Part shown: positions 10,781-48,821 of the stretch, piece by piece
Numbering within the stretch: position 1 is the first letter of the stretch
Layout of the letters: each line of letters begins with the position of its first letter
From: an uncultured Clostridium sp.
Lineage (GTDB): Bacteria > Bacillota_I > Bacilli_A > RF39 > UBA660
DNA length: 64,000 nucleotides
NCBI GenBank assembly: GCA_902492325.1
Contig: CABULC010000004.1
Location: forward strand, 24,833-88,832
Direction of reading: 5' to 3'
The notes under the pieces: model-generated
Seen by the model: the letters and a program-made list of their open reading frames with translations, nothing else
The model's database searches: none
What the model was told of the DNA's origin: nothing
Program-made: the position numbers and the translations under genes

Positions 10781-10792
10781 ATCTATGCCTCT

Positions 10793-24100: not shown

Positions 24101-27100
24101 TCACTACCACCGCTACCATTAACAGTAGTATGTTTAAATGCATGATCACCTACAGCTATAACATCTTTAGTAACTCCTTTTATTGTATACGTAAGTGGAA
24201 TATTAAATGTATTAGATATATCTGCTCCATGATATTCAATAATTTCCCAACCATTAACATCTTGATTATTTCTATCTTTTATAGTTGTCTCTCTTACACT
24301 ATACTCACCAATATCATATGGAATTGGTGTATTGATAAATGAACCAACTATATATCCAGTTGGATAAATATAATCTTGATAATTACTAAATAATGCTTTA
24401 TAGAAATCAACTTTTCCTTCAGGTACATATATTCTAAGTCTATTATTAGCATTAGTACCAATATTATTCATCGCTGTACTATGAACTGACATGTTATCAG
24501 TATTAGTAGTACCTATAAATATTTGTTCTAAGTTAGGGTTATTACTAATAGCATTCTCTCCCATTACTTGAATATTACCAAGGTTAACACTATATAAAGT
24601 ATCCATATCCGACATAGCATATTTACCCATAGAATTTAAATTTGGAAGGTCTACTGTTTGAAGACCAGTATTATATAAACTATAGTCTCCAATAGAAATT
24701 AAACTCTCTGAAGTAAGTGATTTAACTTTAATATTTTCAAGACCATGATTATCTATATTTATTAAATTATTCGCAAGTAAATCAATAGTTTGATTTGATG
24801 ATGAAGCAGTATGTCTATATGCATACTCGCCTACTGAAATTATATTCATTAAAGGACTAGTCGAAGAATATACACTCAAGATACCAATACTTAAACTTTG
24901 AGAAGACATATCATAATAGAATGACAATTGTTTACTTTCTCCAGGAGCAATAGTTCCATTATAATCTTTACTTGTTAAGATTAATAAGTTACCATTTACA
25001 CTTTCATTAGCTCCAGTATAAGTAGAACCCCATGTAACACCCGTTGGAAGATTTATTCTAACAGTCCAATCATTTATAGTAGCTGTTGTATTATTTGTAA
25101 TTGTTAAGTTACCACCAAATCTGTATCCACTACCATTTTGCCATGAGTTACCAGTTATAGATGCAGATAATCCTTCGTCAGATACTATAACATCTGGTAT
25201 TTGATAACTACTAGTTAAATCAGCTCCATGATATTCAATAATTTCATAAGCAGTTACATCTTCGCCCTGAGCATTCTTTTTAGTAACACCACGTACACTA
25301 TATTCACCCCAATCATATGGAATAGCTACGTGTTTATAACTACCAATTATTGTTCCTTTAGGATATACAAATGATTCATTAGCAGCAAATATCTTCTTAT
25401 ACCCTTGTAAATAATCAAATCCTTCAGCATCTGTTCCTGATGGAACATACACTCTAAGTCTACCATCTAAGTACATTCCCCAATTTGTAAATACAGCATC
25501 TTCACCAACAGTTAAATCAATACTTTTACCATTATTTACAACCTTAGTAGAAATATTACTAAACCAAACTCTACCAAGTTGAGGACAATTATAAAATGCT
25601 TTATCACCTATTACTTTAACAGTTCCAAGGTCCATCTCATAAAGAGTTGTACTATTCATAAACGCATATGACATTATTTCATCAACATTAGGAAGACTAA
25701 TATAAGTTATTGGATTTTGATAGAAACCATAAGAACCAATATATTCAAGTTTATTAGAAACAAGTGTAGTTAACTTTGTATCATAAAATGCATATGAATT
25801 TATTTTACTAACTTCACCTAAATTTATTTCAGTTATATTATCTTTATAGAATGCATATGAATCAATTAATGACACAGTATTTGGAATAGTTATCTTAGTA
25901 CCAGTAGCAGCTGTATTTAAATTCCTATATGAATTATATCCAAGTGCAGTAACAGGTTTAGTAACAGATGATTTAGTTATATTATTTGGAATAGTAATAC
26001 TAGAACCAACTGATACACTATTTATAAAGTATGAAATTCCATATCCTTCACCATAATCATAAACAAAATATTGTTTATTATCAGATAATTCTCCGTGATA
26101 ATATACATATGCTTCATTAATATTTTTAGTATTTCTAAATGTTTCAATTGCTCCTTGACTTACAAAGAACTTAGTACCATTAGAACTATCATTAAATGTA
26201 TTACTTCCAATAGTTGGAGGAATTTGTCCTCCAAACTTAACATATCTTGCATTAGCAAATGCTCCATCACCTATATTAGTTACAGTAGATGGAATTGATA
26301 AGAATGTAAATGCTCTAGAAGTAGATATACGGCCTAGGTTAACATTAGCAAATGCATTAGAACCAATAGTTGTTAATGTTTTAGGAAGAATTAATGTCTT
26401 AATACTTGTCTTATCTTTTAAAGTATTATTAGCTATTTTATTAATTGTTGTTCCATCGCTAACAGTAGCATTCGCAAGTCCTAAATATTCTATAGAATGC
26501 ATTTCATCACTAGCTATATAAGTAAAATCTTCATTTTCAAAATAAGCACTATTTAATGTATATATTATTAATTTCTTAATATTATAAATATTTTCAGTAG
26601 TAGTTGTAGGATCAATATCATCAAAGTATGCTTTTAATAGCTTTTCTAATGATTCGTTATTATCACGAATATAAACATAATATGAATTTTCTTCACCTTG
26701 AATTGGTATTACAGAATCTTCAGGAGCACCCTGATTGATATCATCTCCAGTAAAGTTATCAGATCCGCCAACTGTAATATTGTTAGATGAAACTCCTCTT
26801 ATAATTAATGTATTACCAGTGTTAGGACCAGTATATGGTGTTGAGTTAGATGGAAGCATAATAGAAGGTCCATTTAATACCCCAAGAATTGTATTTAAGT
26901 TGTATACATATATTTGATATTTAGAGAATGAATCAATAAGTTTCATGTTTTGAAGTTGTATTTGAGTAATAGTACCATTATTAAGAATCTCAATGTTAGT
27001 TGAACCATCTGCTCCTATTACATAACCTACTTCTACATTAGGTGCAATAGTTAAACGAGTATTTGATTCAACAATTATATCAACAGGTATATTACCTACT

Positions 27101-28530
27101 TTATTTTTAACAATTCTAACAGCTTCTAATAAAACACCATCTTCCTCTTCATTTTGAATACCATTAACAGTAAATTCTTTACCAACAAATATATCATAAT
27201 CTTGATTTAAACCAACAATATGTATTTGACTCTTTGGAGTATTTATATATAAATTTCCATCAACATCTATTTTTCCACCAGAGGAAGTATCAATGTTAAG
27301 TTTACCCATCTCAACGAAATCATAAACTAAGTCTCCAGTAAAATGTAAGTTGTATCCAGCAGTATCTAAATGTACTCTACGTTGAAAATCAACACTACCA
27401 TCAATCTTAATATCATCAGCAAGCTTAATTGTATCTCCACTAAGAGCATTAAGTGCAGCATCTCTAAATTGACTTTCATTTTCTACTAACCAAATTTGTC
27501 CTTCATTAGCAAGGCTAACATCTATTCCTCTTTGAGTACAATACACGTTCGCATGAACACTTACTGAAGCTCCACTATATAATGACGAATTAACATTTTG
27601 ATACATACCATAATCTATTCTAAAGTATCTATAATTATTTTCATCATCATCTTTATCTTTATCTATTTCACCTTTAATAATTATTTGAGGTATTGTAGTT
27701 AAATTTGATACTGGGTTTAATGCATCAGTTTCAAGATTATCAGGTGTTGGATTTGAAGCAGCATATGCTTTTAACTTAGTATCATTAGTAGCAGTAACTG
27801 TACTTGAAAGTACTTCATCAGTAATATCTATAACTCTATAATATAGTACTCCTGCATTAGACATTGTTCCATCTAACGTAAATGATAAGTTATAATCTAT
27901 ATTTAATGAACCAGTATTTTTAATCTCAATATATCTTGTATTCTTAAATGTATTACTTAAATCTGTTTCACGTACTACAGTAACGGTGTCACCTTCAGTA
28001 CCAATTAAAACACCAGATTTATCATATTGATTAACTATATGTTCTACAGTACCTAATTTAATTTCAGTACCTTTACTAACATATTCATTATAAAACCAAC
28101 TATAAGCATCATATATTAAGAAAACACTAAGTATGACAAGTACAAATGATTTAGCCATAATTCTAGGAGTCATATATTTAGAATATTCACTTCTGTAACC
28201 GTCTATTCTCTCTTTATTTTTAGTTTTAGCTAAACTCAAGTACTCTTTAAATTCACTATAATATTCTTTTGCATATCTCTTAAACTTTTTACAATATAGT
28301 ACTATATAAAGTCTAATCTTTTTTAAGAATCTTAAATTATAAATTGAATCAATAAATCTATATAGATAAACAGATACTACTATTACACCAAGTATTTCAT
28401 AATAGTAAAACTTTCTTAATTTCTTTCTAATTTTTTTATAACATCTTTTAAATCTTTTTTTAGCAACATGAAAGAAATCAATTAAATAATTGATTAATGC
28501 ATTATAAATTTTATTAATGCTTTCTTTCAT
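21190..28530 (-). CDS. Giant (2446 aa) surface protein. It has a Lys/Arg-rich N-terminal region, a TM or signal segment ending in a SipW-type AYSWF motif, multiple BspA-type leucine-rich repeat blocks and four ~230-aa internal modules.
   Basis: A strong RBS aaggagtagatATG sits at the first ATG. AKSFVLVILSVFLIYDAYSWFYNE resembles SipW-cognate signals. LRR_5-like stretches include IGSNAFANV... and IGDKAFYNCPQL... The module IPY(D/N)(W/I)GEYSV...EI(I/V)EYHG(A/P)D recurs four times. There is no LPXTG motif. Confidence 0.7.
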   Translation of the reverse strand: MKESINKIYNALINYLIDFFHVAKKRFKRCYKKIRKKLRKFYYYEILGVIVVSVYLYRFIDSIYNLRFLKKIRLYIVLYCKKFKRYAKEYYSEFKEYLSLAKTKNKERIDGYRSEYSKYMTPRIMAKSFVLVILSVFLIYDAYSWFYNEYVSKGTEIKLGTVEHIVNQYDKSGVLIGTEGDTVTVVRETDLSNTFKNTRYIEIKNTGSLNIDYNLSFTLDGTMSNAGVLYYRVIDITDEVLSSTVTATNDTKLKAYAASNPTPDNLETDALNPVSNLTTIPQIIIKGEIDKDKDDDENNYRYFRIDYGMYQNVNSSLYSGASVSVHANVYCTQRGIDVSLANEGQIWLVENESQFRDAALNALSGDTIKLADDIKIDGSVDFQRRVHLDTAGYNLHFTGDLVYDFVEMGKLNIDTSSGGKIDVDGNLYINTPKSQIHIVGLNQDYDIFVGKEFTVNGIQNEEEDGVLLEAVRIVKNKVGNIPVDIIVESNTRLTIAPNVEVGYVIGADGSTNIEILNNGTITQIQLQNMKLIDSFSKYQIYVYNLNTILGVLNGPSIMLPSNSTPYTGPNTGNTLIIRGVSSNNITVGGSDNFTGDDINQGAPEDSVIPIQGEENSYYVYIRDNNESLEKLLKAYFDDIDPTTTTENIYNIKKLIIYTLNSAYFENEDFTYIASDEMHSIEYLGLANATVSDGTTINKIANNTLKDKTSIKTLILPKTLTTIGSNAFANVNLGRISTSRAFTFLSIPSTVTNIGDGAFANARYVKFGGQIPPTIGSNTFNDSSNGTKFFVSQGAIETFRNTKNINEAYVYYHGELSDNKQYFVYDYGEGYGISYFINSVSVGSSITIPNNITKSSVTKPVTALGYNSYRNLNTAATGTKITIPNTVSLIDSYAFYKDNITEINLGEVSKINSYAFYDTKLTTLVSNKLEYIGSYGFYQNPITYISLPNVDEIMSYAFMNSTTLYEMDLGTVKVIGDKAFYNCPQLGRVWFSNISTKVVNNGKSIDLTVGEDAVFTNWGMYLDGRLRVYVPSGTDAEGFDYLQGYKKIFAANESFVYPKGTIIGSYKHVAIPYDWGEYSVRGVTKKNAQGEDVTAYEIIEYHGADLTSSYQIPDVIVSDEGLSASITGNSWQNGSGYRFGGNLTITNNTTATINDWTVRINLPTGVTWGSTYTGANESVNGNLLILTSKDYNGTIAPGESKQLSFYYDMSSQSLSIGILSVYSSTSPLMNIISVGEYAYRHTASSSNQTIDLLANNLINIDNHGLENIKVKSLTSESLISIGDYSLYNTGLQTVDLPNLNSMGKYAMSDMDTLYSVNLGNIQVMGENAISNNPNLEQIFIGTTNTDNMSVHSTAMNNIGTNANNRLRIYVPEGKVDFYKALFSNYQDYIYPTGYIVGSFINTPIPYDIGEYSVRETTIKDRNNQDVNGWEIIEYHGADISNTFNIPLTYTIKGVTKDVIAVGDHAFKHTTVNGSGGSDIVNNKLMKLGDHSFEGITAIKSFTSTSLLDIGSYAFNNGGLVYLETPNLRSIGSYALANMNTLYKINLGSVYQMDTNAVYALPNLVQVFFTPGSETRVFDQYAFTDVGTLTNNRIRFYVGSSNTSTEVKTPNNVNINVTDSCSRSQRGNGTSRRYTYVCTVTVRNDSGHDIEAWTTSVTLGNTTLQTATNALYEASSSRIVFNNTSSNGTLTNGSSTTFSYTVRTTNSSTWTNLYGHLSGSTGTYYTTTITTSTDYLTDVYANSFRKEYKDYFYDYGTIMGTYSSTNIPYNIGEYSVVSREYITKDNQSVKGLEIVEYHGADLNATYMLPTTLAIDGQSYEVIGVGERAFRWVTMSSGSTFDIVNTNLRYIGNYAFYNLQGVRELNLSNVDYIGEYALFNNKLYKATTPKLVELGNYAYANNITLNYVNAGPVTSIGEGAFYGCTGMEQMFFTSTNADTQASGMKIGVGSNAFYNVGTTIGKRFRIYVPDGKIGTSNVTYQEAYKNTFPSNVKDYIYPTGYIIGSYKFGTLPYDIGEYSVREVTLKNMMNADVTGWEIIEYHGPDVTSSFEIPNEITAGGITHDVVSIGTYAYYGVEVVTGQTWVVNLPNSVVLIDDYAFYQTDVTRVTGNQITRLGKYSFADCEKLTNAIFNSVVVADDYCLYSCGSISYIQFGTGTTNINDYALYNPYQGGPTTTLSMQVNSVPNTASNALPGYERGFLGLWYNSHFTYSVPSSVLSDFRNATPWSYHNYSSAQYSSDFLYILNNNNEIKITSYTGSSASVTIPDTLDVNGRSYNVTSITADAFDGNRYVTTLKLPRYLDDIPGGFLDGNSNISNINVDANNATFSSTSGVLYNKDASSLIRYPNGKTAITFTVPSTVKTIGYRAFANQTNINTIYMNNILESIGAYAFNGCTNLSAYYFYTDVPKLTGFDTFDTSYQLQMYVPTDYISNYRSNTYFKAYSNYLVAN
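22000..26200 (-). repeat. Four diverged ~0.7-1.1 kb intragenic repeat modules within the giant gene (approximate bounds)
   Basis: Recurring protein module ...IPYD.GEYSVR..T.K......V.G.EIIEYHGAD..... flanked by LRR blocks. Confidence 0.45.
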
Positions 28531-28539
28531 ATCTACTCC

Positions 28540-29082
28540 TTATTGATTTTTTATTTTTTTAACATCCTTTACTATATCTTTTATTTCAAAGAAATATATA
28601 AGTCCTAAAGGTATAATTATTATAAGTATAAATCCTAATTTAGTATCCATTATTCTTTCTATAATACTAAATAAGAAAAATTTATATATGTATTTTCCAA
28701 GCATTTGTTCTTCATAAACCGCTGGGTCATTTGACACATTTTTAATACCTTTAGTATAAAATATTCTTCTATTGTTTTCTTTTGAAATTCCAACTATTTC
28801 GTGAGTAACTATTTTACCTTTTAAGTCTCCATCCATTCCTCTAAAAGTAACTATATCTCCAACTTTATAGTCAGATATTTTTTGTTTTTTTATAAGTATT
28901 ACATCACCTTTTTTTAGTTTAGGATACATACTATTAGTTATTATTGAGTAAGTTCTAAATCCAAAAACACTTGGATTATTTGGCACTACTTTTTGATAAG
29001 CAGTTGCTATTACAAATAGTACAAGTAAGATAAGTAATATTATTTTAATAACATCTAATATTTTAAGTAATACTTTTTTCAT
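28540..29082 (-). CDS. sipW: Signal peptidase I, archaeal/ER-type (SipW-like), paralog 1
   Basis: N-terminal TM, box B TNSMYPKLKKGDVILI, box D IVTHEIVGI. Confidence 0.75.
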   Translation of the reverse strand: MKKVLLKILDVIKIILLILLVLFVIATAYQKVVPNNPSVFGFRTYSIITNSMYPKLKKGDVILIKKQKISDYKVGDIVTFRGMDGDLKGKIVTHEIVGISKENNRRIFYTKGIKNVSNDPAVYEEQMLGKYIYKFFLFSIIERIMDTKLGFILIIIIPLGLIYFFEIKDIVKDVKKIKNQ

Positions 29083-29093
29083 ATATATCCTTT

Positions 29094-29669
29094 CTATGGT
29101 TTAATAAACATTATTTTGTTAACTTTTAGTGATGTTCCCTGTAATGCATTTGGAGCATCTATATCTATTTCTAAATTCCAATAATAATTTAATGTTGAGT
29201 TCGCAGGAATTGTAACACTTTTAGCAAAATCGAAGAAATATCTATCATCCTCTTCATTATGTTCAAGTCTATCATTAAGCATAAATGAGAATGTTTCAGG
29301 GTTAGTAGCACTTATTTTTAAATAATTCTTCATAAAATTTATATTACCTGTTATTTCAGTAAATACAATCTTAACTTTAGCAGCTACCTTATTTTTATTA
29401 GTTAATTCAAACCTATATCTTTGTATTTTTCCTGGATACATTTCATCAAGAGTAATAAGTGCATCAGCACTTTGTTGTCCTTGAAGAACATAAGTATTAT
29501 TAACAAGAGCATAAAGTTTAACATCTATATCACTATCAGTTATATAAAAGTCACGATTATATTCAATGTTTTCGCCTAAAGATGGTTCTGTTTGCATCCA
29601 TCCATAAGCTATTCCTATTAATAAAGCAATTATTAGAATATTTAATATTATTGATATATTCTTTTTCAT
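29094..29669 (-). CDS. TasA/camelysin-like SipW-dependent secreted protein (small paralog, family 1)
   Basis: Likely ATG start at MKKNISII (RBS GGGGG); the track's upstream start is a TTG. Signal ends IAYGWMQTE. C-terminal motif is shared with the neighbouring paralogs. Confidence 0.5.
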   Translation of the reverse strand: MKKNISIILNILIIALLIGIAYGWMQTEPSLGENIEYNRDFYITDSDIDVKLYALVNNTYVLQGQQSADALITLDEMYPGKIQRYRFELTNKNKVAAKVKIVFTEITGNINFMKNYLKISATNPETFSFMLNDRLEHNEEDDRYFFDFAKSVTIPANSTLNYYWNLEIDIDAPNALQGTSLKVNKIMFIKP

Positions 29670-29670
29670 A

Positions 29671-30723
29671 TTAACCCCCAAATGTTACCAGTGTTGCATA
29701 ACTTTCTGGAGATACACCAACCACTTCAGCAATTCTAACATATACACTTTGATATCCTGTAAATTGTTGATTTGGATCAGTTACCTTAGTCCATACAGTA
29801 TTTTGATCATTAGTAGTTGCCCATTCCATTGTAGTATCAAGTCCAGTAATTGTATAGTTAGTATTTCCAGTTAATGAAGGAGCCGCTAATAATTCATTCG
29901 CACTACCAAACTTAAATAATACATTTATTATTGTAGAAGCAAGAGCATTAGTACAATCAACATCTCCCCCTTCTAACCATATCTTAAGATTAACTTGCAT
30001 TCTAGAGTTTTTAGGAATAGTAAACAGCACTTTATTAAGATCAATATTATCACTATCACTAGAACTTCTTCCACCATCTTTAAAACTAAAATTACGAACT
30101 AATTGGTTAGTAGAATATTCACTAGGTACATTACCAAAAGTAAATTTTCCAGTTTTAATTATAGCCTTAGTTGTATACGGATCAGTTATACCATTTTCAG
30201 GTGTTTTACCAAATATCACTGTCGCAGTTGAACTACTTGAAGTTGGATAAGTAATTGCTATTCTAAGAGCATCCCACGCAGGACCAGTAACTTTAGTATC
30301 CCTATGTATATATACATGTTTTGGATAGTCTTCAGTTTGTAAATAAAAATTAAAATCAACGTAACCATTCTCTATCATTTGAGATACACTTCCATCAGAC
30401 TTAGGAAGTAAAATAAATTCTGGATCAGTCAATGATAAACCTTCATTAAAATCAATTGTATAAAAGTTAGCAGCATCTACACTAGATACTTGTTTTAACT
30501 CAAATTCATCAAAATTATCTAACATATTATTTAAATTAACAACACTTCTAGCAGCAGAATCTGGTTGAAGTTTTATAACCAATCCTTCAGCAGCACTAAC
30601 CTGAATATTAGATAAGTTTATTTGAGGATTTGATCTATCTTGAAACCATGCATATGAAGTCATAAATAATATAACAGTAAATCCAACAAGTAATATTATT
30701 TTTACTATTATTTTCTTATTCAT
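29671..30723 (-). CDS. TasA/camelysin-like SipW-dependent secreted protein (family 1)
   Basis: Signal peptide ending SYAWFQD (matches the B. subtilis TasA GTWAAFND logic). C-terminal motif NLKIWLEGGDVDC. Confidence 0.5.
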   Translation of the reverse strand: MNKKIIVKIILLVGFTVILFMTSYAWFQDRSNPQINLSNIQVSAAEGLVIKLQPDSAARSVVNLNNMLDNFDEFELKQVSSVDAANFYTIDFNEGLSLTDPEFILLPKSDGSVSQMIENGYVDFNFYLQTEDYPKHVYIHRDTKVTGPAWDALRIAITYPTSSSSTATVIFGKTPENGITDPYTTKAIIKTGKFTFGNVPSEYSTNQLVRNFSFKDGGRSSSDSDNIDLNKVLFTIPKNSRMQVNLKIWLEGGDVDCTNALASTIINVLFKFGSANELLAAPSLTGNTNYTITGLDTTMEWATTNDQNTVWTKVTDPNQQFTGYQSVYVRIAEVVGVSPESYATLVTFGG

Positions 30724-31892
30724 TAATTTTCACCCCCAAACTTAACAATTACTGCTTTAGATGCTAATAACTCATCTGTTTCTTTATATCTAACATATAC
30801 AGTAGAATTCTTATCAAATGTTACAATATTTTTATATTCAATGTATGTAAGACCATTATCAGTTGAATACTCCATGTGTTCATTTATACCATCTATAGTT
30901 TTACTAACATCATCAGCTTTAACATTTGGAACATTGGTGTTTTCCTCTTTAGTAATACCTACAAAAGATAAATTTATTTTAAATATTCCACCTTTTAAAG
31001 CAGAAACAGCATCTCTATCATTTCCTTCTACCCATACTCTAACTTTAAGTCCAGCTTTTTTCTCTAGCCCATCTTCTGTATCTATAGATACAAGTACTGG
31101 ATCTCCATTAGCCATTTTGGTATCATATGAAGCGCTTATATCATCTTTTAAATTATCTAAATCTTCTTCACGAAAAGTATTTGAATCTTCAACTTTAATA
31201 TATTTATAACTTTGACTATTAGTTGATTCAACATCAGCTGTAAACCAACCATCATTTTCAATTATTTCATATGTTTTATTTGGAGCCCAAATTAGAACTG
31301 GTTTATCTTCAAGTTCAAAACTATTAGTTTCCTCATTAAAATTATATCTTATAAATGCGACTCTAACAGCCCCAGCTATTAAGTCTCTACTAAAGTCTCC
31401 ATAAGCACTAGCTCTAACAATATCATCTATCTTTTTATCACTACCTGGAGTTAATACCAAGTCTTCTTTTTTAGTACCACACTCTGGAGTAACACTAGAA
31501 TCTTCTTCTAAAAATAATTTAACAGAAGAATCATTCTTAAACCAAACATCAAATTCTAAATAATCTTCATTAAGAGTAGCATTAGTAAAACTTAAAGGAG
31601 TTCCATACTCATCTTTTAAATTAGCTTTATAGAAATTAATACCATCACTAGTTACTTCATTATTAAATCTAAATCCTTCACCAACATCAATATTAAATGA
31701 GTCTCCCCAACCTTGATTTCCATCTTCAGAAATCATAATATTATTTGTTTTAGCAGTACCAATATTAACTCCTTCTACATTACTATCACTTTCATGAACA
31801 AACCAAGCATAAGAAAAAACAAATATAGATACAATTATAGCTATAAGTTTAAACATTGTAACATAAATATTTTTACTTGCTTCCTTATTCAT
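30723..31892 (-). CDS. TasA/camelysin-like SipW-dependent secreted protein (family 1)
   Basis: Signal peptide ending SYAWFVHE. C-terminal motif VRVWVEGNDRDA. Confidence 0.5.
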   Translation of the reverse strand: MNKEASKNIYVTMFKLIAIIVSIFVFSYAWFVHESDSNVEGVNIGTAKTNNIMISEDGNQGWGDSFNIDVGEGFRFNNEVTSDGINFYKANLKDEYGTPLSFTNATLNEDYLEFDVWFKNDSSVKLFLEEDSSVTPECGTKKEDLVLTPGSDKKIDDIVRASAYGDFSRDLIAGAVRVAFIRYNFNEETNSFELEDKPVLIWAPNKTYEIIENDGWFTADVESTNSQSYKYIKVEDSNTFREEDLDNLKDDISASYDTKMANGDPVLVSIDTEDGLEKKAGLKVRVWVEGNDRDAVSALKGGIFKINLSFVGITKEENTNVPNVKADDVSKTIDGINEHMEYSTDNGLTYIEYKNIVTFDKNSTVYVRYKETDELLASKAVIVKFGGEN

Positions 31893-31895
31893 ATA

Positions 31896-33008
31896 CTACC
31901 TCAAATATGCAAATGCATCTTGTTTATTCTTTCTATATCCTTTAAGAAGTCCTTTAAACTTCTTAATAATCTCTTTGTCTGTTTTTAACTCTTTTTCATG
32001 AGCTAATTTAAACTCTTCAGTAAGAATCTTTTTGAATTCCTTTTCAGAATATTTTCGATTATTAATCATAAAGTCAGCAATCAACTTGCGAAGAGCATAT
32101 CTATTAATTTTATCTTCTTTAAATGTTTTATTAGAATCGCTCTCATTAAGTATTACATAATCTAAGAAGAATGCCATGTCCATTCTATTTTTAGTTTTTT
32201 CATCATCTACTTTTTCATGAGAATCATTAACTTCCTTCTTATCTTTAACATCATATTGCTCTATAAATTCCCATAATTCTAATGCTTTTTGAAAGTTTGG
32301 ATTTTTAAGAATAGTATTTGTCTTTCTAATTGGAGATTTTACTGGAGCAGCACTTGCAAGTTCTTTAACAAATGGTGTTTTTAAAAAGTCAGCAACTACT
32401 AACTCAATCTTAGCAAGTCTTTGTTCAACACTCTCTCCACTTGATGAAGTACCACTTAAATCTTCAAATGAATTAGTTTCCATATTTAAAGTTATATTTA
32501 CTTCATCTTTTCCTAACTTAGTTTTACCATTATAAGTCATTATTCTCTTTTTCTTAGCATAACTTCCACTCGCAGTAGCTTCTTTTCTAAGTTTAAAGAA
32601 ATAATTAAGGTTATTTAATAATGATATTACAAATCTATTCTCATAAATATCAAAGCTTTCTTCCTTGTTTACATTAAGTACTTTACTAGGAGTAATTGTT
32701 CCATCTTCACTAACATCTTGTATTAAATCAGTATGTTGTGCTAAATGTTTTATAGTTTCTTGACTAATCTTTTTAGCTTTTTCTACTGGAACTATTTCTT
32801 CTTCTTGCATTATGAATCTTTTAGGGTTTCTAATGATATTATCAAGATAAATAAGAGTTTCTTCTATTTTATCTATCCATGAGTAATCATACTCTACACT
32901 TTGAAAAGATGAATTAACAACAACTTTAGATTCATTAGAACCAACAAATTGTTGCATAGCTAAATTATCTGTATCATCTAATAAATTTAATAATTCGTTT
33001 TTATTCAT
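31896..33008 (-). CDS. Hypothetical cytoplasmic protein in the McrC position downstream of the McrB-like GTPase. No nuclease motif is evident, and the C-terminus is K/E-rich.
   Basis: Tightly coupled to the upstream AAA+ gene (13-nt gap). No PD-(D/E)xK motif recognisable by eye. Confidence 0.4.
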   Translation of the reverse strand: MNKNELLNLLDDTDNLAMQQFVGSNESKVVVNSSFQSVEYDYSWIDKIEETLIYLDNIIRNPKRFIMQEEEIVPVEKAKKISQETIKHLAQHTDLIQDVSEDGTITPSKVLNVNKEESFDIYENRFVISLLNNLNYFFKLRKEATASGSYAKKKRIMTYNGKTKLGKDEVNITLNMETNSFEDLSGTSSSGESVEQRLAKIELVVADFLKTPFVKELASAAPVKSPIRKTNTILKNPNFQKALELWEFIEQYDVKDKKEVNDSHEKVDDEKTKNRMDMAFFLDYVILNESDSNKTFKEDKINRYALRKLIADFMINNRKYSEKEFKKILTEEFKLAHEKELKTDKEIIKKFKGLLKGYRKNKQDAFAYLR

Positions 33009-33021
33009 CTTTTATTCCTTT

Positions 33022-34623
33022 CTACATTGCTTTCTTAAGTCTAGCTAAATATTCTTTACATTCACTCATATTTTCTTTTCCAAATGTTTTATCTAAGAAT
33101 TTAACATATCCATCTATCTCATCACGAATGAATGATAAGTTTAATTGTTCAAACTTTCTAAGTACTTTTTTACAAAGTATATAATCAAATCCATCTAACT
33201 CAGTACCACCACATGCTACATATACTGGAATGAATTCTTTAATATGTTTTACGATACGGTTTCCAAAGGCTAGTCTGAAATGTTCAATAACATAATTGTC
33301 CATATCTTCTAACTTATTAAGTGTATCTTGACTAACTGCATGTTCTTGCTTAGCTTTAGTAAATAAGCTTTCTAAGTAACTACTATTAATTCTAATACCT
33401 TCTGTATCAGGTGCATCAAATGGTTGACCTTTATCATTAATATCTATAGGCATCGCACGGTCGTATACCTTATCTGTTACCATAAATGTTGAATCATCAT
33501 TATTGATTGTACCAATGTACCACATGTTATCTGGTATCTTAAGTTTACCATCAGGTAAATGTTTAGGATCGTTTGGCCATACATTTGGTACCAAATCTAT
33601 TACCCATTCATCACGAGAAGGCATTTCTAATATAGATAGCATTTCTGCGAAATAGTATTCAACACGAGCTATATTCATTTCATCTAGTATTGTTAAATAC
33701 ATTTCATCATTATAACTTGCTTCATACATAGCTTTTAATACTTCTGTTTCGTTAAACTTTTTAGTAAACTCGTTGAAGTAACCAAATAGCTCTGTTCTAT
33801 CTCTCCATGAAGGTTGAACTGAAGCAATAGTTGCATCTCTACTAATAAATTTTCCCCAAGCATATGGAAGTGATGTTTTACCAGTACCAGAGATACCTTG
33901 TAAAATTACAAGTCTTGTTGCTCCAAGAGCTGCTACAAACAAACGAATAATTTTAACTTTATAATATAGTTTCATACGACTAGCAGCAAAGTTTCTAAAA
34001 GTATCACATAATTCTTCAAGTGTGAATGTATTACCAAAGTTTTCTGGTTCTTTATTTGCATACTCTTCATCAATTTGAGTTAACTTGAAGAAACGACTTC
34101 CATTAGCCGCTTCAGGTATAGCTTCAGCTGGAGTCTCTTCACCTTCACCAGTTTCACCTTCAGTAGTAGTACTTTCACTAGTACTCTTAATATCACTAGG
34201 TAAATCTACATTCAAAGCACTCTCTTGAGGTTTAAGACCAATTTGTGAAACTTTCAAAGCATATAATTCTTCTTTTTCTTGATTAAGTCTTATAACATCT
34301 CTATCAAGTTTAGCCACTTCTTCTAATAAACTTTCTTGCTCAACTAAAGTTTTCTTAAACTTAAATATTTTTCTAATTAACAAAAATACCAAATATATAA
34401 TTCCAAGTAAGAATGCAAGTATAAGTAATACTGCTAAACCTACTAATATCCATTGACCAACTGAAAATTCTCCAGAATATTCTTTTAATATTTTCAAATA
34501 TGCTTTAAAGTTAAACATCTTAATAATGCCTTTAAAAAATCCCATAAAAATATTTATTATTCCGGAAAAGAATTGTTCAAATAAATCATATAAAAATCTA
34601 ATATATGTTGACAATTCTTCCAC
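33022..34623 (-). CDS. Membrane-anchored McrB-family AAA+ GTPase (AAA_5), with N-terminal TM helices and a coiled coil
   Basis: Walker A VILQGISGTGKTS. Walker B region YLTILDEMNIARVEYYFAEMLSILE (compare McrB IDEINRAN). McrB signature WYIGTINNDDSTFMVTDKVYDRAM (compare IIGTMNTADRS...D.ALRRRF). Two hydrophobic helices occupy the first ~100 aa. The start codon is ambiguous: GTG at 34623 or TTG ~9 nt downstream, after RBS agaggtgg. Confidence 0.65.
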   Translation of the reverse strand: MEELSTYIRFLYDLFEQFFSGIINIFMGFFKGIIKMFNFKAYLKILKEYSGEFSVGQWILVGLAVLLILAFLLGIIYLVFLLIRKIFKFKKTLVEQESLLEEVAKLDRDVIRLNQEKEELYALKVSQIGLKPQESALNVDLPSDIKSTSESTTTEGETGEGEETPAEAIPEAANGSRFFKLTQIDEEYANKEPENFGNTFTLEELCDTFRNFAASRMKLYYKVKIIRLFVAALGATRLVILQGISGTGKTSLPYAWGKFISRDATIASVQPSWRDRTELFGYFNEFTKKFNETEVLKAMYEASYNDEMYLTILDEMNIARVEYYFAEMLSILEMPSRDEWVIDLVPNVWPNDPKHLPDGKLKIPDNMWYIGTINNDDSTFMVTDKVYDRAMPIDINDKGQPFDAPDTEGIRINSSYLESLFTKAKQEHAVSQDTLNKLEDMDNYVIEHFRLAFGNRIVKHIKEFIPVYVACGGTELDGFDYILCKKVLRKFEQLNLSFIRDEIDGYVKFLDKTFGKENMSECKEYLARLKKAM

Positions 34624-34651
34624 CTCTATTCTTAATTCTATACTCAGTTTA

Positions 34652-34681
34652 ATTTTATCATATTTTAGGACTAAATTACAA
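34652..34681 (-). promoter_or_regulatory. Candidate sigma-A promoter for the mcrB-like to giant-protein operon
   Basis: Minus strand TTGTAA, 18-nt spacer, TAAAAT. It lies just downstream of the sipW2 terminator. Confidence 0.35.
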
Positions 34682-34697
34682 GGAAATATACTACTTT

Positions 34698-34730
34698 TAT
34701 CAAAATAAAAAAGCTATTCAATGAATAGCA
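34698..34730 (-). terminator. Rho-independent terminator after sipW paralog 2
   Basis: Inverted repeat gctattca-a-tgaatagc, followed by UUUUUUAUUUUG on the minus transcript. Confidence 0.5.
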
Positions 34731-34748
34731 ATTTTTATATTAAACAAA

Positions 34749-35303
34749 TCATTTAACTTTCTTATAATCTAGTAACAACATTATAAATTTATATAATTGA
34801 TATATAAAGAATGCTGCTAAAGGTAAAATGATACATACAAAGAATCCAACTTTAGCTTTTAAGAATGTTAGGATTGAACCTAAAACCGGTAATCTTGTTC
34901 CATTCCATACAGAGATAATATCTCCAGGAGCAACTTGTTGTGGATCTTCTCCAGTATTAGCATCACCTTGAGTAACATAAGATGTCATACCATTTACTGT
35001 AAGTACTGATTTAATTCTGTGTGTTTTAATTATTTTAGTATTTTCTTCCATTGCGAAGAATGCAATAACATCCCCCTCTTTTAATACAGTTTTTCCATCA
35101 TAACTCTTAGTAACAATTAAGTCACCAGTCTTAATAACAGGTTCCATTGATCCTGTTTGAATATTTAGAGGGATGTATCCAAATATTTTAGAAACTCCTT
35201 TTTCACGAGAAGTTAATGTAATCAAAGTTACACTAGCTGCTAAAATAATAACAACCCAAATTATTATATCTAAAATAACTTTTAAAATCTTTTTTCCTTT
35301 CAT
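34749..35303 (-). CDS. sipW: Signal peptidase I, archaeal/ER-type (SipW-like), paralog 2
   Basis: Box B TGSMEPVIKTGDLIV, box D IIKTHRIKSV, N-terminal TM. Confidence 0.8.
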   Translation of the reverse strand: MKGKKILKVILDIIIWVVIILAASVTLITLTSREKGVSKIFGYIPLNIQTGSMEPVIKTGDLIVTKSYDGKTVLKEGDVIAFFAMEENTKIIKTHRIKSVLTVNGMTSYVTQGDANTGEDPQQVAPGDIISVWNGTRLPVLGSILTFLKAKVGFFVCIILPLAAFFIYQLYKFIMLLLDYKKVK

Positions 35304-35321
35304 ATTACGCCTCCAAAATTA

Positions 35322-36446
35322 CTATACACCAGCATTTTTAGATATTTGAATGTTGAAAGTAATATTAGAACCAGAAGCATTATTTTCACAGTCATAATCT
35401 TGTCCTTCAACCCATCCATATATTCTAACCTTATTAATACCAGCAGCTAAGTTAAATAATGTTTTATATTCTCCATTAGCAGTATTTCCATTTGGAGTTT
35501 GAATATCAGGAGTTACTTGATCAAAATATGTAGTAACTTTTGATTGATAGTCTACTGCAGGATTTGCAGCAATAGCAGCTTTAATACCATAGTAATTAGG
35601 TACAACTGTAGTCGTATCATATGTAGTTTCACCATAGTTGTTTGCTTGTGCTACACCAGCAGCTGTGTGTATATTTGAGTTTGGTTCCCAGAACATATTA
35701 GTAGCACCACCAGCACTATGACTAGCAGCACCTTTTAATGCAATAGCATCTGCACTAGCACCTGTAGCAGCACTACCTTCATAAAGGAATGCAACTCTAG
35801 CGGCATTCTTAAGTCCAGTATCAGCAGCAGTAGCTACAACATCTGATGAAGTTGTTAAATATACTGTAGTAGCTTGTGTAGTTAATAAGAATAAATCAAA
35901 TGCAATAAAGTCACCTGTAGTACCTGCTTTTTCAATAGATTGTTCTGCAACTAATCTATAACCATGAGCAGTAGTAGCATCAGCTTCAATACTACCTTTA
36001 TACATTTTCATAAATCCTGTAGTAGCATCTACATCACCTATAGTAGATACAGGAACAATTTGATTTGGTAATTGGTTTGTATTACCAGCATAAGCATTAG
36101 CAGTAATATCATTAGTTGAAATATTTGCTTTCCAGTTAACAGCATCTACAGAAACTTGGATACCATTAGCAGCACTAACATTTACATCAATGCTATCAAC
36201 AGTAACAGTTGTATTTTCAGTGAACCATGCATAAGATGCAGTAGTTAAAGAAATAGCAGTAACTATCAACATAAGGAATGCAGTAAGAATCTTTTTACTA
36301 TTATTATTTGATTCTTCATGATTTTCTTTTACAACATTGTTTTCAACAACATTAGTTGCTTGTGGTTGAGCAGGAGTATTATTAACAACTGCTTGATCAA
36401 CAGGTGTTGTTTGAACATTGTTTTTTACATTGTTTTCATTTTCCAT
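35322..36446 (-). CDS. TasA/camelysin-like SipW-dependent protein (family 1) with a ~50-aa N-terminal cytoplasmic extension
   Basis: TM ILTAFLMLIVTAISLTTASYAWFTEN. C-terminal motif VRIYGWVEGQDYDC. Confidence 0.5.
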   Translation of the reverse strand: MENENNVKNNVQTTPVDQAVVNNTPAQPQATNVVENNVVKENHEESNNNSKKILTAFLMLIVTAISLTTASYAWFTENTTVTVDSIDVNVSAANGIQVSVDAVNWKANISTNDITANAYAGNTNQLPNQIVPVSTIGDVDATTGFMKMYKGSIEADATTAHGYRLVAEQSIEKAGTTGDFIAFDLFLLTTQATTVYLTTSSDVVATAADTGLKNAARVAFLYEGSAATGASADAIALKGAASHSAGGATNMFWEPNSNIHTAAGVAQANNYGETTYDTTTVVPNYYGIKAAIAANPAVDYQSKVTTYFDQVTPDIQTPNGNTANGEYKTLFNLAAGINKVRIYGWVEGQDYDCENNASGSNITFNIQISKNAGV

Positions 36447-36461
36447 AATTTAATCCTTTCA

Positions 36462-37151
36462 TTAATCAGTTTTTTCAGTAATTATCATAGACATTTTCAT
36501 TTCCCCTCCAATGATATCATCGATACATTCAGGGTCTTTACCTTCAAGCCAAACAATTACAGTGTACCTGTCTATTTCACCAGGTTTAATGTTATTTCTA
36601 TCTTGTTGCATTATTAAATGATTTGATAAAAACGATATTGTATTTGGTTCAGCTTTGCCATCTTTAGACTTTTTAGCATAAACCTTTTTTTCGCCATTAG
36701 TATAAAGAGCAACTCTAACAGCCTCATCAACATTCTTTATAACAGATTCTATAACAATCTTAGATTTATAACTAACATTCTCTTTTCCATCATTTTTTAC
36801 AAAGAACGTATATGCGATATAGTTATCTTCACTATGATCACCTTCTTTTGATATTAAACTATCAAAAGGAATCCACCCTTCAGTAATGTTATCCATATAC
36901 TCTAAACCTTTTACTTTGATTTCAACAGTTTCCGCAGAAAACTCTGAATCAGAAGATAAAAGTATATGTCTTTCAGACTTTAAATTTTTATCTAGTTTAA
37001 TTGTAAAATAACCATTGCTATTCACAACATATAATATTAAATATAATATTGAGAAAAACAGTAATAAAACTAATAAAGCCATTTTTACAATTCTAGTAAA
37101 TAATTTTCGTCTATAAACTTTTTCAGCAGTTACTTTAACAATATTATCCAT
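36462..37151 (-). CDS. Family-1 paralog with an uncleavable-looking N-terminal anchor (possible TapA-like anchoring or accessory protein)
   Basis: TM LLVLLLFFSILYLILYVV lacks the A-W-F motif. The C-terminus shares the family motif VIVWLEGKDPEC. Confidence 0.4.
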   Translation of the reverse strand: MDNIVKVTAEKVYRRKLFTRIVKMALLVLLLFFSILYLILYVVNSNGYFTIKLDKNLKSERHILLSSDSEFSAETVEIKVKGLEYMDNITEGWIPFDSLISKEGDHSEDNYIAYTFFVKNDGKENVSYKSKIVIESVIKNVDEAVRVALYTNGEKKVYAKKSKDGKAEPNTISFLSNHLIMQQDRNNIKPGEIDRYTVIVWLEGKDPECIDDIIGGEMKMSMIITEKTD

Positions 37152-37159: not shown

Positions 37160-38281
37160 CTACTTATACATTTTATAAGTTCCATTATCATATTCTTCTA
37201 CAATTGTGGCATTAATACTTCTAGAAAAATTGATAATACTTTCATAATTAGTAACTTCGCCAGGCTTTAAAAATAAATAATTTACAAGACCTTTAAGTTT
37301 AATAGATTTTTGCTCTAGAGTATTTAAATGATAAACGCCAATCATAACACCAGCATTCTTCAGCTCTTTTACTTTAATATCTCTAGAAATTAGTTCACTA
37401 TATGGTACTAAAAATACAAAATGATTTAGAGTTTTAGGCTCAATAATATTAAGCATCTTAGTAACATTAGTTCTAAGTCTAAAAAATCCATTCGGAAGTT
37501 TTATAAAATATAATGTATTCTTTTTATCAGAGAAAACATCTTTAACTATTTGAAAACTTACATTTTCAGCTTCAATATACTTAAAATCTATCGCAAATTC
37601 ATATTTAATAAATGCATCATATACATGACTAGAATCAATACCACTAAATTCTTCTTTATCAAAATGAATTCTTGACATATAGTAATTAATACCATTTAAA
37701 TTACCAACAATGTCATAATAAACTTTCAAAGGTGATTTCGATAATTCTCTTAAACACTTTTTATAATTTTTACTTTCTTTAGTAATATTTTTAATTATTT
37801 TAATATAATTTTCATCAAATAATTCTTTTACTTCAGAATCAAAAAGTGACTTATTCTTAACTTCAAACATCTTTATGATTTCTTCATAACTGTATTTATC
37901 TTTAGTTAATGAATTAGAATATTCTTCTAAAGCAATATTTAAAAGAATAAGTTTAGCTACTAAATAATACCAATTGAATAACTTTTTATTATCAATCAAA
38001 TCTAAGTAATCAACTACATTTTCAAAAATAAGTAAAAGCATTCTTTTTGGTACAATACTAACTACACCATATTTTTCAAATATTTCTGTATATTCTTCTA
38101 GAGCTTTATCTATGTTTCTATTTCCAAAAAAGAAGTCTTGATAGAATTTATCTATACATATTTCAAAGTCTTCTATATTTTTTGGATATGGAACAATCTC
38201 ATCACGAATAAGTATATCTACGTTTTTAAGAATGCATTTAGCTTTTTGTTTTAAAAAAACATCTGCTATGCACCTCATCAT
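37160..38281 (-). CDS. Cytoplasmic hypothetical protein at the head of the fibre operon
   Basis: ORF with no signal peptide and no motif recognised. Confidence 0.4.
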   Translation of the reverse strand: MMRCIADVFLKQKAKCILKNVDILIRDEIVPYPKNIEDFEICIDKFYQDFFFGNRNIDKALEEYTEIFEKYGVVSIVPKRMLLLIFENVVDYLDLIDNKKLFNWYYLVAKLILLNIALEEYSNSLTKDKYSYEEIIKMFEVKNKSLFDSEVKELFDENYIKIIKNITKESKNYKKCLRELSKSPLKVYYDIVGNLNGINYYMSRIHFDKEEFSGIDSSHVYDAFIKYEFAIDFKYIEAENVSFQIVKDVFSDKKNTLYFIKLPNGFFRLRTNVTKMLNIIEPKTLNHFVFLVPYSELISRDIKVKELKNAGVMIGVYHLNTLEQKSIKLKGLVNYLFLKPGEVTNYESIINFSRSINATIVEEYDNGTYKMYK

Positions 38282-45829: not shown

Positions 45830-45866
45830 CGCTAAAACAAATAAAAAGTACTATTTCTAGTACTAA
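45830..45866 (-). terminator. Rho-independent terminator after the lipoprotein gene, overlapping its stop codon
   Basis: agtacta-tttc-tagtact followed by UUUUUAUUUGUUUU on the minus transcript. Confidence 0.5.
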
Positions 45867-46567
45867 TTAATTTTCTTGTATAAGAATAAAGTTATAACCA
45901 ATAATATACCAATTATTACACCACTAGCAATATACCAGCCACTTATTCCACTTCCAACTTTATCTTTACTAATTGCAAAATAAATATTATTGTCTTCTTG
46001 ATCAATAGTCCAAGTAGCAGTATCTCCATTTACATTTTTCGAATTCGTATTTAATAACTTATCTTTTGCTTCAATTTTAAATTGCATACCTTCTACATAT
46101 CTACATGTATAATATCCAGATAAGCTATAATAATATGCTTCATCATCATCTCTTATATATTTAATACTAAAGCAATTATTAAATATATTATTATTTTTAA
46201 ATTCATCATATTTATATTTATAGGTATACTCATATATAAAGTCATTATTATTTTGTGTTAATTTTCCATTGTATTTATAAGTATCCATATTAGCAAAACT
46301 ATTTATTTTGTTTTCATCAAATAATTTTTCAGAACCAGTTTTTACTTGATAACTAGTATATGTTCTACTAACATTAAATTCTTCATCAGTATCATTTACA
46401 TATTTTGTATATTCATTTGCATTGTATTTTATTGTTATTTTTGAATCAATACCATCTTCTCCAAAGTTATAATATATTTCACTAGTACAACCCGTACACA
46501 AAATAATAACGAATACTAATAAAAATAATTCTTTAAATTTAAGCAATTTTGTAACTTGCATATCCAT
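45863..46567 (-). CDS. Lipoprotein with an additional C-terminal TM
   Basis: Lipobox ILCTGCTS. C-terminal GWYIASGVIIGILLVITLFLY. The start is probably MQVTK. Confidence 0.5.
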   Translation of the reverse strand: MDMQVTKLLKFKELFLLVFVIILCTGCTSEIYYNFGEDGIDSKITIKYNANEYTKYVNDTDEEFNVSRTYTSYQVKTGSEKLFDENKINSFANMDTYKYNGKLTQNNNDFIYEYTYKYKYDEFKNNNIFNNCFSIKYIRDDDEAYYYSLSGYYTCRYVEGMQFKIEAKDKLLNTNSKNVNGDTATWTIDQEDNNIYFAISKDKVGSGISGWYIASGVIIGILLVITLFLYKKIN

Positions 46568-47504: not shown

Positions 47505-48125
47505 CTAAATATTTCCATGCTCATTTTCCATACTTAATAATTTACTTTTAAGTAAAACTAATCTAAATATTTTATAAATATCATATGAAATAATAACAAG
47601 AGCAGGAATCATTATAGCAATAATCCATCCACCTTTAGATGCTAAGAAAAATTGTACTCTTCCAAGCTGTGGTATTTTAAATAAAACTTTACCAACAACA
47701 TTACTAGGAATAACTTTTTCTTCATCAGCTTTAGGATTAGCATCCCCTTTTACTCTAAACATTTTACCTGATTCAGGTACATTAACAATTTCTATAATTC
47801 TATGTGTTATAGGAGTTCCACCAAAGAAAGAGTTAGTAGAATAAAAAGTAATTATATCTCCTTCTTTTAATTTGTCTGTATCAACTCTCATAGTAAAAGC
47901 AACATCATACACATTTAAAGTACCAGTCATACTAGGACTTATTATTGTATATAAACCAAACAATGGTTTTTTACCTTGCTTTTGAGCAATCTTTCCACTA
48001 ATAACATAAAATATTAAAAATGCAGCTATTGCCATAAGAATACAAATAATAGTATAACTTATGACTTTATAAATCATTTTAAATATTTTTTTTCTCTTAA
48101 TTTTCTTATCCTCTTCCATAAACAA
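47505..48125 (-). CDS. sipW: Signal peptidase I, archaeal/ER-type (SipW-like), paralog 3 (more divergent)
   Basis: TM, box B ISPSMTGTL, box D ITHRIIEI. Confidence 0.6.
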   Translation of the reverse strand: MFMEEDKKIKRKKIFKMIYKVISYTIICILMAIAAFLIFYVISGKIAQKQGKKPLFGLYTIISPSMTGTLNVYDVAFTMRVDTDKLKEGDIITFYSTNSFFGGTPITHRIIEIVNVPESGKMFRVKGDANPKADEEKVIPSNVVGKVLFKIPQLGRVQFFLASKGGWIIAIMIPALVIISYDIYKIFRLVLLKSKLLSMENEHGNI

Positions 48126-48131
48126 ACTCCA

Positions 48132-48692: not shown

Positions 48693-48767
48693 AATCTCGT
48701 CACCATACTATATATATAATAACAAAAAACGTACTAGTTTACAAGAAATAATACTAACATAAACTTT

Positions 48768-48803: not shown

Positions 48804-48821
48804 ATTTTATCCTAAATTAAA

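Follow-up and report, generated by a model that had tools for sequence, protein, structure and literature searches.

A probable CoCoPALM-type locus of uncultured gut Bacilli and the surface filament that it may build

Introduction

Why would two signal peptidases, a set of exported proteins and a GTPase related to the restriction protein McrB be encoded in one tight cluster? The question is raised by an eleven-gene locus in a 64,000-nucleotide stretch of DNA (the window), which covers positions 24,833 to 88,832 of contig CABULC010000004.1 (assembly GCA_902492325.1) from an uncultured Clostridium sp. placed by GTDB in the Bacilli_A lineage RF39; UBA660. A sequence-only reading of positions 28540-37151 had described the locus as an enlarged version of the tapA-sipW-tasA fibre operon of Bacillus, and the open reading frames (ORFs) that it named are present where it placed them, on the minus strand. 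The answer that we favour, with a probability of about 0.55, is that the locus is a CoCoPALM-type surface-filament system of a lineage of uncultured gut Bacilli, in which a fibre processed by SipW-type peptidases would be assembled or gated from the cytoplasm by a GTPase complex. The two peptidases, the exported proteins, the GTPase and its McrC-like partner are inherited together as one block, and the locus is most economically explained as encoding a surface fibre of several subunits. The eleven genes are tightly packed and all lie on the minus strand, so transcription runs from high to low coordinates, and the strand is not repeated below for genes of the cluster.

The GTPase pair

Two central genes, which the sequence-only reading had left without a name, could be assigned to families. 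The first (33022-34623) encodes a 533-residue McrB-family AAA+ GTPase. The protein matches the McrB structure 6hz4 in the PDB (E 1.8e-5) and the NCBIfam McrB model NF008457 (5.8e-5), and its GTPase core matches the PADLOC profile PDC-M26A at 2.8e-37. At least 90% of 27 orthologs retain the motifs GISGTGKTS, LDEMNIA and GTINNDDSTF. Ahead of the core come, in order, a transmembrane-like segment (residues 51-89), a predicted coiled coil with the conserved heptad-like pattern LVEQE...EKE...KVSQ, and an acidic linker. The sole hidden Markov model (HMM) support for an FtsB-like character of this region is a weak NCBIfam match to FtsL (E 0.095, residues 66-120), and the N-terminal 144 residues found no FtsB, FtsL or DivIC match in the PDB. 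The second gene (31896-33008) encodes a 370-residue McrC-like partner, which carries the Pfam domain DUF2357, the N-terminal domain of McrC, at 1.5e-13 and ends in a helical, poorly conserved C-terminus. This gene adjoins the GTPase gene in all loci examined. Its product has no transmembrane segment, no motif conserved after about residue 250 and no match to a nuclease HMM. The topology of the two proteins implies that the pair is cytoplasmic and that the GTPase is tethered to the membrane.

A class with these features was named in a single paragraph of a census of restriction systems, which called it a large clade and deferred its analysis (Bell et al., eLife 2024, PMC11090510). The class, CoCoPALM, consists of NxD McrB GTPases fused to an FtsB-like transmembrane segment and coiled coil and associated with signal peptidases; the NxD is usually followed by D or E, not part of an NxxD motif, and the adjacent McrC homolog often lacks an active nuclease (PMC11090510). 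The locus in the window likewise has a McrB-family GTPase, with a possible N-x-D-(D/E)-type signature and a predicted N-terminal transmembrane segment plus coiled coil, next to a DUF2357/McrC homolog without a recognisable nuclease, and signal-peptidase genes flank the pair both here and in its relatives. The difference is that the published account is silent on exported subunits, an anchor, a giant adhesin, an EAL-like gene and a two-module layout. Going by the published description, the locus is best filed as a CoCoPALM member and not as an expanded tapA-sipW-tasA operon. The GTPase pair, seemingly the most conserved and most diagnostic part of the system, would place it in that class.

Literature searches for a follow-up on CoCoPALM, and for McrB together with SipW, returned only the 2024 paper and its preprint as relevant, and a search of supplementary files of the CoCoNuT paper gave no details on CoCoPALM. 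One literature match for McrB plus SipW in C. perfringens was dismissed, since it was an E. coli genotype string.

Set against McrBC of E. coli, a type IV restriction enzyme, the pair agrees in its AAA+ GTPase core, with Walker A and B motifs and an asparagine sensor motif, and in having a DUF2357 activator encoded alongside. It differs in that the DNA-binding N-terminal domain of McrB is replaced by the transmembrane segment and coiled coil, and in that its neighbours encode exported proteins, not restriction-modification functions. Neither of the canonical McrBC traits, the DNA-binding N-terminal domain on McrB and the PD-(D/E)xK nuclease on McrC, was recognised here.

Gene order in related genomes

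Relatives of the putative major subunit are present in at least 442 species-level genomes of uncultured, small-genome gut Bacilli. At the gene for this subunit the window is 99% identical to the human-gut metagenome-assembled genome "Bacilli bacterium HGM10772", and its relatives are assemblies of the same kind labelled Bacilli, Mollicutes, Mycoplasmatota, "Clostridium sp. CAG:524/CAG:1000" and "Mycoplasma sp. CAG:877". Related loci were fetched and compared by ORF calling and phmmer. About 28 of them keep the full eleven-gene order, down to roughly 48% identity of the major subunit: the 373-residue gene, the 229-residue gene, the major subunit, SipW, the GTPase, DUF2357, the 389-, 350- and 195-residue genes, a second SipW and the giant leucine-rich repeat (LRR) gene. 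The suggestion that at least eleven genes belong together is borne out by this fixed order, and so is the view that the locus is far larger than tapA-sipW-tasA, with eleven genes against three or four. In each of seven loci compared, the GTPase was the best-conserved gene of the cluster (60-89%); the 373-residue gene is the least conserved (21-63%). Wherever the GTPase pair was seen, SipW and exported paralogs accompanied it.

The first gene of this order (37160-38281) was missed by the sequence-only reading and is a conserved upstream member of the cluster. Loci with the complete cluster have it in the same place, and in loci of the split type described below a weak relative stands directly before the GTPase gene. 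The 373-residue product is predicted to be cytoplasmic and has no transmembrane segment. The protein itself matches nothing in Pfam, NCBIfam or the PDB; one of eight orthologs matches the Pfam family EAL at 2.6e-4. On visual inspection its C-terminal half resembles a degenerate EAL domain that lacks the catalytic residues. The protein is possibly a degenerate EAL-like regulator related to cyclic di-GMP.

In more distant lineages the cluster is split into two modules, which we call shaft and motor. The shaft module holds a 229-like gene, the major subunit and a long SipW of about 415 residues; the motor module holds a 373-like gene, the GTPase, DUF2357, a SipW, a small protein with the S-Y-A-W-F motif and small TasA-like proteins. 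The two modules adjoin in four loci (L028, L039, L045 and L063) and are apart elsewhere. They appear to correspond to two operons in the window, of which operon 1 comprises the regulator, anchor, shaft and peptidase 1, and operon 2 the motor, minor subunits, peptidase 2 and adhesin. Between these two gene groups, the 125-nt gap that separates the peptidase 1 gene from the GTPase gene contains a terminator-like hairpin with a T-run (34713-34729, minus strand; stem of 7 bp, loop of 3 nt, then TTTTTTATTT) and, downstream of it, a promoter-like site with an extended -10 element (34681-34652, minus strand). Two terminator-separated operons had been proposed, and one hairpin does lie between the gene groups; both it and the promoter-like site are consensus matches only.

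Two further traits were observed in the split-type loci. Three small exported proteins precede the GTPase module (L039 136-2303 and 7537-8130; L086 6781-8938); they have TasA-style leaders (for example GGKTYTAFESE), no Pfam match and no counterpart in the cluster of the window. The major subunit is followed by a peptidase of about 405-425 residues (L039 11950-13200; L038, L043, L050 and others), in which a SipW domain precedes a cytoplasmic extension of about 250 residues without a recognisable domain. In L039 this peptidase is preceded by a 539-residue coiled-coil protein.

The surroundings of the cluster are chromosomal. In the window it is flanked by genes for PcrA helicase, LemA, a copper-type P-ATPase and YfhO, and further examples adjoin FtsH, ParAB, rpsF, ssb and rpsR. 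The full-length GTPase architecture was not found in phage and plasmid collections. An origin from a prophage or plasmid was rejected on these two grounds, the housekeeping neighbours and the lack of a full-length match. The idea that the GTPase pair is an inserted defence island was rejected because of the conserved synteny and because the GTPase is the best-conserved gene of the cluster.

Signal peptidases and their predicted substrates

Both peptidases are of the archaeal/ER type. Peptidase 1 (34749-35303; 184 residues, with two transmembrane segments) and peptidase 2 (28540-29082; 180 residues) score 86.3 and 94.4 bits against TIGR02228, the NCBIfam model of the archaeal/ER-type signal peptidase I, which has a cut-off of 51.85. 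Against the bacterial P-type model TIGR02227 they reach 31 and 33 bits, short of its cut-off of 47. The serine of S-M-x-P and the histidine of T-H-[RE] are conserved across 69 and 34 peptidase orthologs. Peptidase 1 orthologs keep SM, THR and GD.N...D; peptidase 2 orthologs keep SM, TH and N...D, the first aspartate of box E being replaced (G-I-K-N) and the second retained. The earlier assignment to the SipW/Sec11 type, as opposed to the P-type with its Ser-Lys dyad, agrees with all of this. The Bacillus SipW equivalog model NF046067 gives 101 bits for peptidase 1 and 76 for peptidase 2, below its cut-off of 190. Judged by these scores, both share their type with Bacillus SipW but are not orthologous to it, and at 34% identity over 83 residues the two are old paralogs of each other.

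The substrates of these peptidases would be recognised by a common signal. Six copies of the motif [YF][AGS]W[FM] are found among the window's 59 long reading frames, all of them directly behind an N-terminal hydrophobic stretch; five belong to the cluster and one to a second sipW module described further below. By a rough estimate about 0.1 occurrences would be expected by chance. Orthologs hardly vary it: the major protein has [ST]YAWFT, the 389- and 350-residue proteins have [ST]YAWF and SY[AS]WF, the 195-residue protein AY[GA]WM and the giant protein DA[YF][SG]WFYNEYVSKGT. Because six sites were found against about 0.1 expected, and because orthologs preserve them so well, the shared signal is not due to chance. 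The observation of hydrophobic segments that end in A-W-F-type motifs beside peptidase genes thus holds.

The cluster signals combine small residues at positions -1 and -3 with a Phe or Met in P2', the context described for SipW and TasA (PMC10269814). Six exported proteins share this unusual SipW-like cleavage context, with the predicted cut before W-F or W-M. Their placement in the SipW-cognate signal class is right as to this context and the aromatic P2', and it finds no echo in the model TIGR04088, which none of them matches at E<=0.1. In the major subunit Y72, A73, W74, F75 and N78, and further on V90, G95, Q97, S99 and D101, are invariant. Such strong conservation of the predicted mature N-terminal strand is consistent with strand donation.

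The segments ahead of the signals vary. The first ~50 codons of the major-subunit gene specify an Asn/Val/Gln-rich extension of about 50 residues before the basic n-region, common to close relatives, whereas most of the distant orthologs begin about 10-30 residues ahead of the hydrophobic segment. In the giant protein, too, the signal is preceded by about 120 residues, and these include a second hydrophobic stretch.

The exported proteins

The putative major fibre subunit (35322-36446) has 374 residues and the signal TTASYA|WFTENTTVTV. Two minor paralogs lie downstream of the GTPase pair: a 389-residue protein (30723-31892; signal FSYA|WF) with a C-terminal immunoglobulin-type domain like DUF4073 (Pfam, 2.4e-7, residues 272-385), and a 350-residue protein (29671-30723; signal TSYA|WF), whose gene overlaps the stop of the preceding gene with its start and the start of the next gene by 11 nt with its end. 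A small exported protein of 195 residues follows (29094-29681; signal IAYG|WM). A paralog of 229 residues (36462-37151) is encoded upstream of the major subunit; it has an N-terminal transmembrane segment and no Trp at the cleavage position.

These had been described as five paralogs. Profiles of ortholog alignments built from the related loci were compared with hhalign, and the probabilities are 98.9% for the 374- and 389-residue families, 98.9% for 389 and 350, and 95.6% for 374 and 350. The kinship of these three is clear. The 229-residue protein joins them by its C-terminus, with 77-91% against the 350/389/374 families, mainly through the region W-x-E-G-x-D-x-[DE]-C. The 195-residue protein does not join: it and the N-terminus of the giant protein match the others over the signal region only, and its lineage is separate from that of the other four. 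Near the C-terminus of the major subunit (residues 343-354), and of paralogs, an invariant Y-x-W-x-E-G-Q-D-x-D-C-E with one conserved Cys was noted. The motif resembles a cation-binding site and could be tied to calcium-triggered assembly. Calcium-triggered donor-strand assembly has lately been reported for AbpX and cannulae.

The 229-residue protein is a candidate for a membrane anchor or base subunit. Its transmembrane segment (residues 17-46) is the strongest among the paralogs, its C-terminus carries W-L-E-G-K-D-P-E-C, and among the 81 ORFs of this kind in the fetched loci the gene is always immediately upstream of the major subunit. The sequence-only reading held that it lacks the cleavage motif. 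The Trp is indeed missing, but orthologs keep [small]-G-x-F-T-[IV]-x-L-D after the transmembrane segment, in register with A-W-F-T-x-N-x-T-V of the others, so with the small residue-x-F-T retained an absence of cleavage is not proven. The suggested role as a TapA-like anchor is a guess. No cluster protein matched TapA in Pfam and NCBIfam scans.

The giant protein (21190-28530; 2446 residues, signal DAYS|WF) is encoded just beyond the range 28540-37151 and always last in the loci that have the cluster. It has BspA-type LRR arrays (Pfam LRR_5 at 2.7e-91, in seven stretches) and the carbohydrate-binding module (CBM) CBM_2 at 2.7e-11, with neither an LPXTG motif nor a C-terminal anchor, and it is a candidate for a tip adhesin. 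None of the exported components has a C-terminal LPXTG sorting signal, loose matches being internal or outside these proteins, and none has another C-terminal wall or membrane anchor. Sortase-dependent anchoring was rejected for the lack of a C-terminal LPXTG. Nor was a prepilin leader of the form G|F-T-L-I-E found, the leaders of the cluster ending in Y-A-W-F.

Are the mature domains TasA-like, as had been supposed? For the 195-residue protein there is a transitive link. Its ortholog profile, searched against 1.84 billion representatives, found 74 proteins. One of the distant matches (P0423, E 1.3e-5) passes Peptidase_M73 with 26.9 bits against a cut-off of 22.5 over residues 7-102, and another hits TIGR04088. 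The broadened family aligns to TasA at 64.7% over 78 columns that cover the signal, the first strands and the L-x-P-G-D...N motif. We conclude that the 195-residue protein is probably a divergent relative of TasA and camelysin, linked through an intermediate protein. For the others the supposition fares less well. The hhalign probability of the major-subunit family against TasA is 0.35%, and against the TasA-like 188-residue protein encoded elsewhere in the window the alignment is restricted to the signal region. The 374- and 350-residue proteins have no phmmer match among PDB sequences. The AlphaFold2 model of the 374-residue protein is a beta-sandwich (predicted confidence, pLDDT, of 78 from an alignment of 35 sequences) for which Foldseek found no match in the PDB at E<0.1, and a structural kinship with TasA is at most suggested. 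The four larger paralogs are taken to form a beta-sandwich family of their own, with an unproven link to the TasA superfamily.

Members of the TasA superfamily (TasA, BsaA, AbpA, AbpX, threads and tafi) share a jelly-roll core and donor-strand complementation and often have a co-located TIGR02228 peptidase; in their loci this peptidase is often encoded together with an anchor, a major subunit and a protein that serves as tip adhesin (bioRxiv 10.64898/2026.01.04.697558). Compared with tapA-sipW-tasA, C. perfringens BsaA, archaeal AbpA/AbpX, the Saci_0406 threads and tafi, the cluster has the same dedicated TIGR02228-type peptidase, the aromatic P2', several paralogous, predicted beta-sandwich subunits per locus with a conserved N-terminal strand, and a candidate anchor and tip adhesin to set beside those of tafi loci. 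It differs in its four larger paralogs, which have no HMM or profile similarity to TasA and a weak similarity of fold, and in having two peptidases and a cytoplasmic GTPase pair. No NTPase (nucleoside triphosphatase) was reported for TasA-superfamily loci in the literature examined.

Assembly model and alternatives

In the assembly that we favour, subunits would enter the membrane through Sec and be held there by their long N-terminal hydrophobic segment until SipW cuts them before W-F. The freed N-terminal strand (WFT-N-TVTV) would then be donated to the beta-sandwich of a neighbouring subunit, giving a non-covalent fibre. The 374-residue protein would form the shaft, the 389-, 350- and 195-residue proteins would be low-copy adaptor or tip subunits, the giant LRR/CBM protein the distal adhesin, and the 229-residue protein, with its stronger transmembrane segment and no Trp, would hold the base of the fibre in the membrane. 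Because no LPXTG or C-terminal anchor is present, cleaved exported proteins could stay on the cell only by assembling onto an anchored partner. More speculatively, the GTPase would form a ring beneath the membrane, as McrB does, with the McrC-like protein as activator, and GTP might be used to gate or drive the hand-over of subunits or their extrusion through the wall. The complex would then be a functional analogue of the type IV pilus ATPase, and the EAL-like 373-residue protein might regulate it. The likeness to type IV pili is one of function only: major and minor subunits, a tip adhesin, a dedicated leader peptidase and a cytoplasmic NTPase would be common to both, but no component is homologous, and the cluster has no G|FTLIE motif, PilD, PilB or PilC.

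A stronger version of this model is possible, and we put it forward tentatively. A GTPase of the McrBC type that once served DNA restriction may now power or gate the assembly of a donor-strand pilus that depends on Sec and SipW, which would make the locus a new, nucleoside triphosphate (NTP)-driven class of Gram-positive pilus, widespread in uncultured gut Bacilli. This class would stand apart from type IV pili, from sortase and chaperone-usher pili and from TasA-type fibres that assemble themselves, with a major-subunit fold that has no close solved relative.

Several points weigh against the filament system as we propose it. Polymerisation of the cluster proteins is a prediction, the roles of the individual paralogs are assigned from gene order and sequence features, and the organism is uncultured. 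Elsewhere, GTPases of the McrB family belong to restriction and conflict systems; a motor role for one is without precedent, because TasA-type fibres assemble without an NTPase. The class assignment has a soft spot too: T-I-N-N-D-D-S fits NxD followed by D, and an ungapped alignment to E. coli McrB also reads NxxD. None of the five paralogs matches Peptidase_M73 or TIGR04088 at E<=0.1 in Pfam and NCBIfam. Finally, relatives of the GTPase core with 28-40% identity occur in plasmid and phage records, and those on plasmids count against us. The plasmid relatives (residues ~215-515, 29-40% identity), annotated "AAA family ATPase", come from Deinococcus, cyanobacteria, Betaproteobacteria, Bacillus and Lactiplantibacillus, and none has the N-terminal transmembrane segment and coiled coil. 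They are probably defence-type cousins of the CoCoNuT-like kind.

Three alternatives were weighed. The locus could be an enlarged SipW/TasA-type matrix-fibre locus whose product assembles itself without energy, the McrB/McrC-like pair being a co-transcribed regulator, checkpoint or quality control. TasA, archaeal bundling pili, threads and tafi do polymerise by donor-strand complementation without an NTPase (PMC9674648, PMC9245690, PMC9715654, PMC12337348). The signal class and the peptidase type match, the 195-residue protein links to Peptidase_M73, a terminator-like site parts the shaft genes from the GTPase operon, and many relatives carry the anchor, shaft and SipW genes by themselves over +/-10 kb. 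We nevertheless think this account unlikely, since an accessory role is hard to square with a pair that is kept with SipW and exported paralogs wherever it is seen and that includes the best-conserved gene of the cluster, and since the four larger paralogs have no sequence similarity to TasA.

If the GTPase pair is instead made the core, the locus would serve conflict or defence as part of the CoCoNuT-like McrBC branch, and the exported proteins would be a surface coat, decoy or sensor by which phage is detected or blocked rather than an adhesive pilus. Such a system would explain why the GTPase core matches McrB and the candidate defence protein PDC-M26A (2.8e-37) and has 30-40% identical relatives on plasmids of many phyla, and CoCoPALM itself came out of a restriction-system census (PMC11090510). 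The locus has, however, no nuclease or other effector domain that could be found, PADLOC has no match for the partner proteins of the GTPase, and phage and plasmid collections hold no full-length match. Defence islands are usually patchy and mobile, whereas this cluster is vertically conserved, in fixed order and strongly, among chromosomal housekeeping genes, and we regard a defence role as quite improbable. A reading without any filament, in which monomeric glycan-binding proteins, anchored in the membrane or released, make up a complex for capturing polysaccharide, the N-terminal segments are signal anchors and the beta-sandwich paralogs are CBMs, seems the hardest to sustain. Cleavage is favoured by the presence of two dedicated peptidases and by the invariant small-residue/W-F junction, and once cut the proteins would have nothing to retain them on the cell. 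A mature N-terminal strand as extremely conserved as this one would be unexpected in CBMs, and the GTPase would be left unexplained. The filament system with its GTPase complex is the reading that we retain.

Other features of the window

The G+C content is about 26-30% throughout the DNA. A third SipW-type peptidase (47505-48125, minus strand, 206 residues) scores 90.2 bits against TIGR02228 and adjoins two small exported proteins. One, of 188 residues (48822-49388; signal GATFA|WFS), matches Peptidase_M73 over nearly its full length with E 4.6e-4 and 20.5 bits, just below the cut-off of 22.5, and the other, of 186 residues (48132-48692), matches it weakly (E 0.03). Positions 47505-49388 would thus be a compact, classical sipW-tasA-like module in the same window. 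Next to it, in the downstream region 45863-47492, a 317-residue protein (46539-47492) has weak matches to Peptidase_C39_2 and T4SS_pilin.

Positions 16614-18185 encode a 523-residue protein with a type IV pilin N_methyl segment (1.4e-8) and five DUF285 repeats (5e-97), which suggests that the genome also encodes a type IV pilus or pseudopilus system, separate from the cluster. Positions 1285-12415 look like another surface-protein cluster: two paralogous transmembrane proteins of 271 and 288 residues, a Cys-rich exported protein of 1386 residues without a Pfam domain, small exported proteins with C-terminal transmembrane anchors, and a 540-residue protein with a C-terminal sortase domain (8e-13) are encoded there. 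A T-box leader (58992-59169, minus strand; Rfam RF00230, 99.2 bits) lies upstream of a 510-residue ORF (57429-58961).

Significance

The class to which the locus is assigned was named in 2024 and is otherwise undescribed, and the component list and two-module architecture given here make it concrete. More than 1200 homologs of the major subunit and more than 8000 of the GTPase are labelled hypothetical and have no Pfam domain, so a correct annotation would propagate widely. Should the GTPase pair prove to be involved in assembling the fibre, a McrB/McrC module would for the first time have a function outside nucleic-acid restriction, and an NTPase would for the first time be tied to a TasA-style fibre, a kind of fibre thought to assemble without energy input. 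Such loci are very common in uncultured gut Bacilli and may bear on how these attach to hosts, glycans or other cells, and the giant LRR/CBM protein, as the obvious candidate adhesin, is the testable part.

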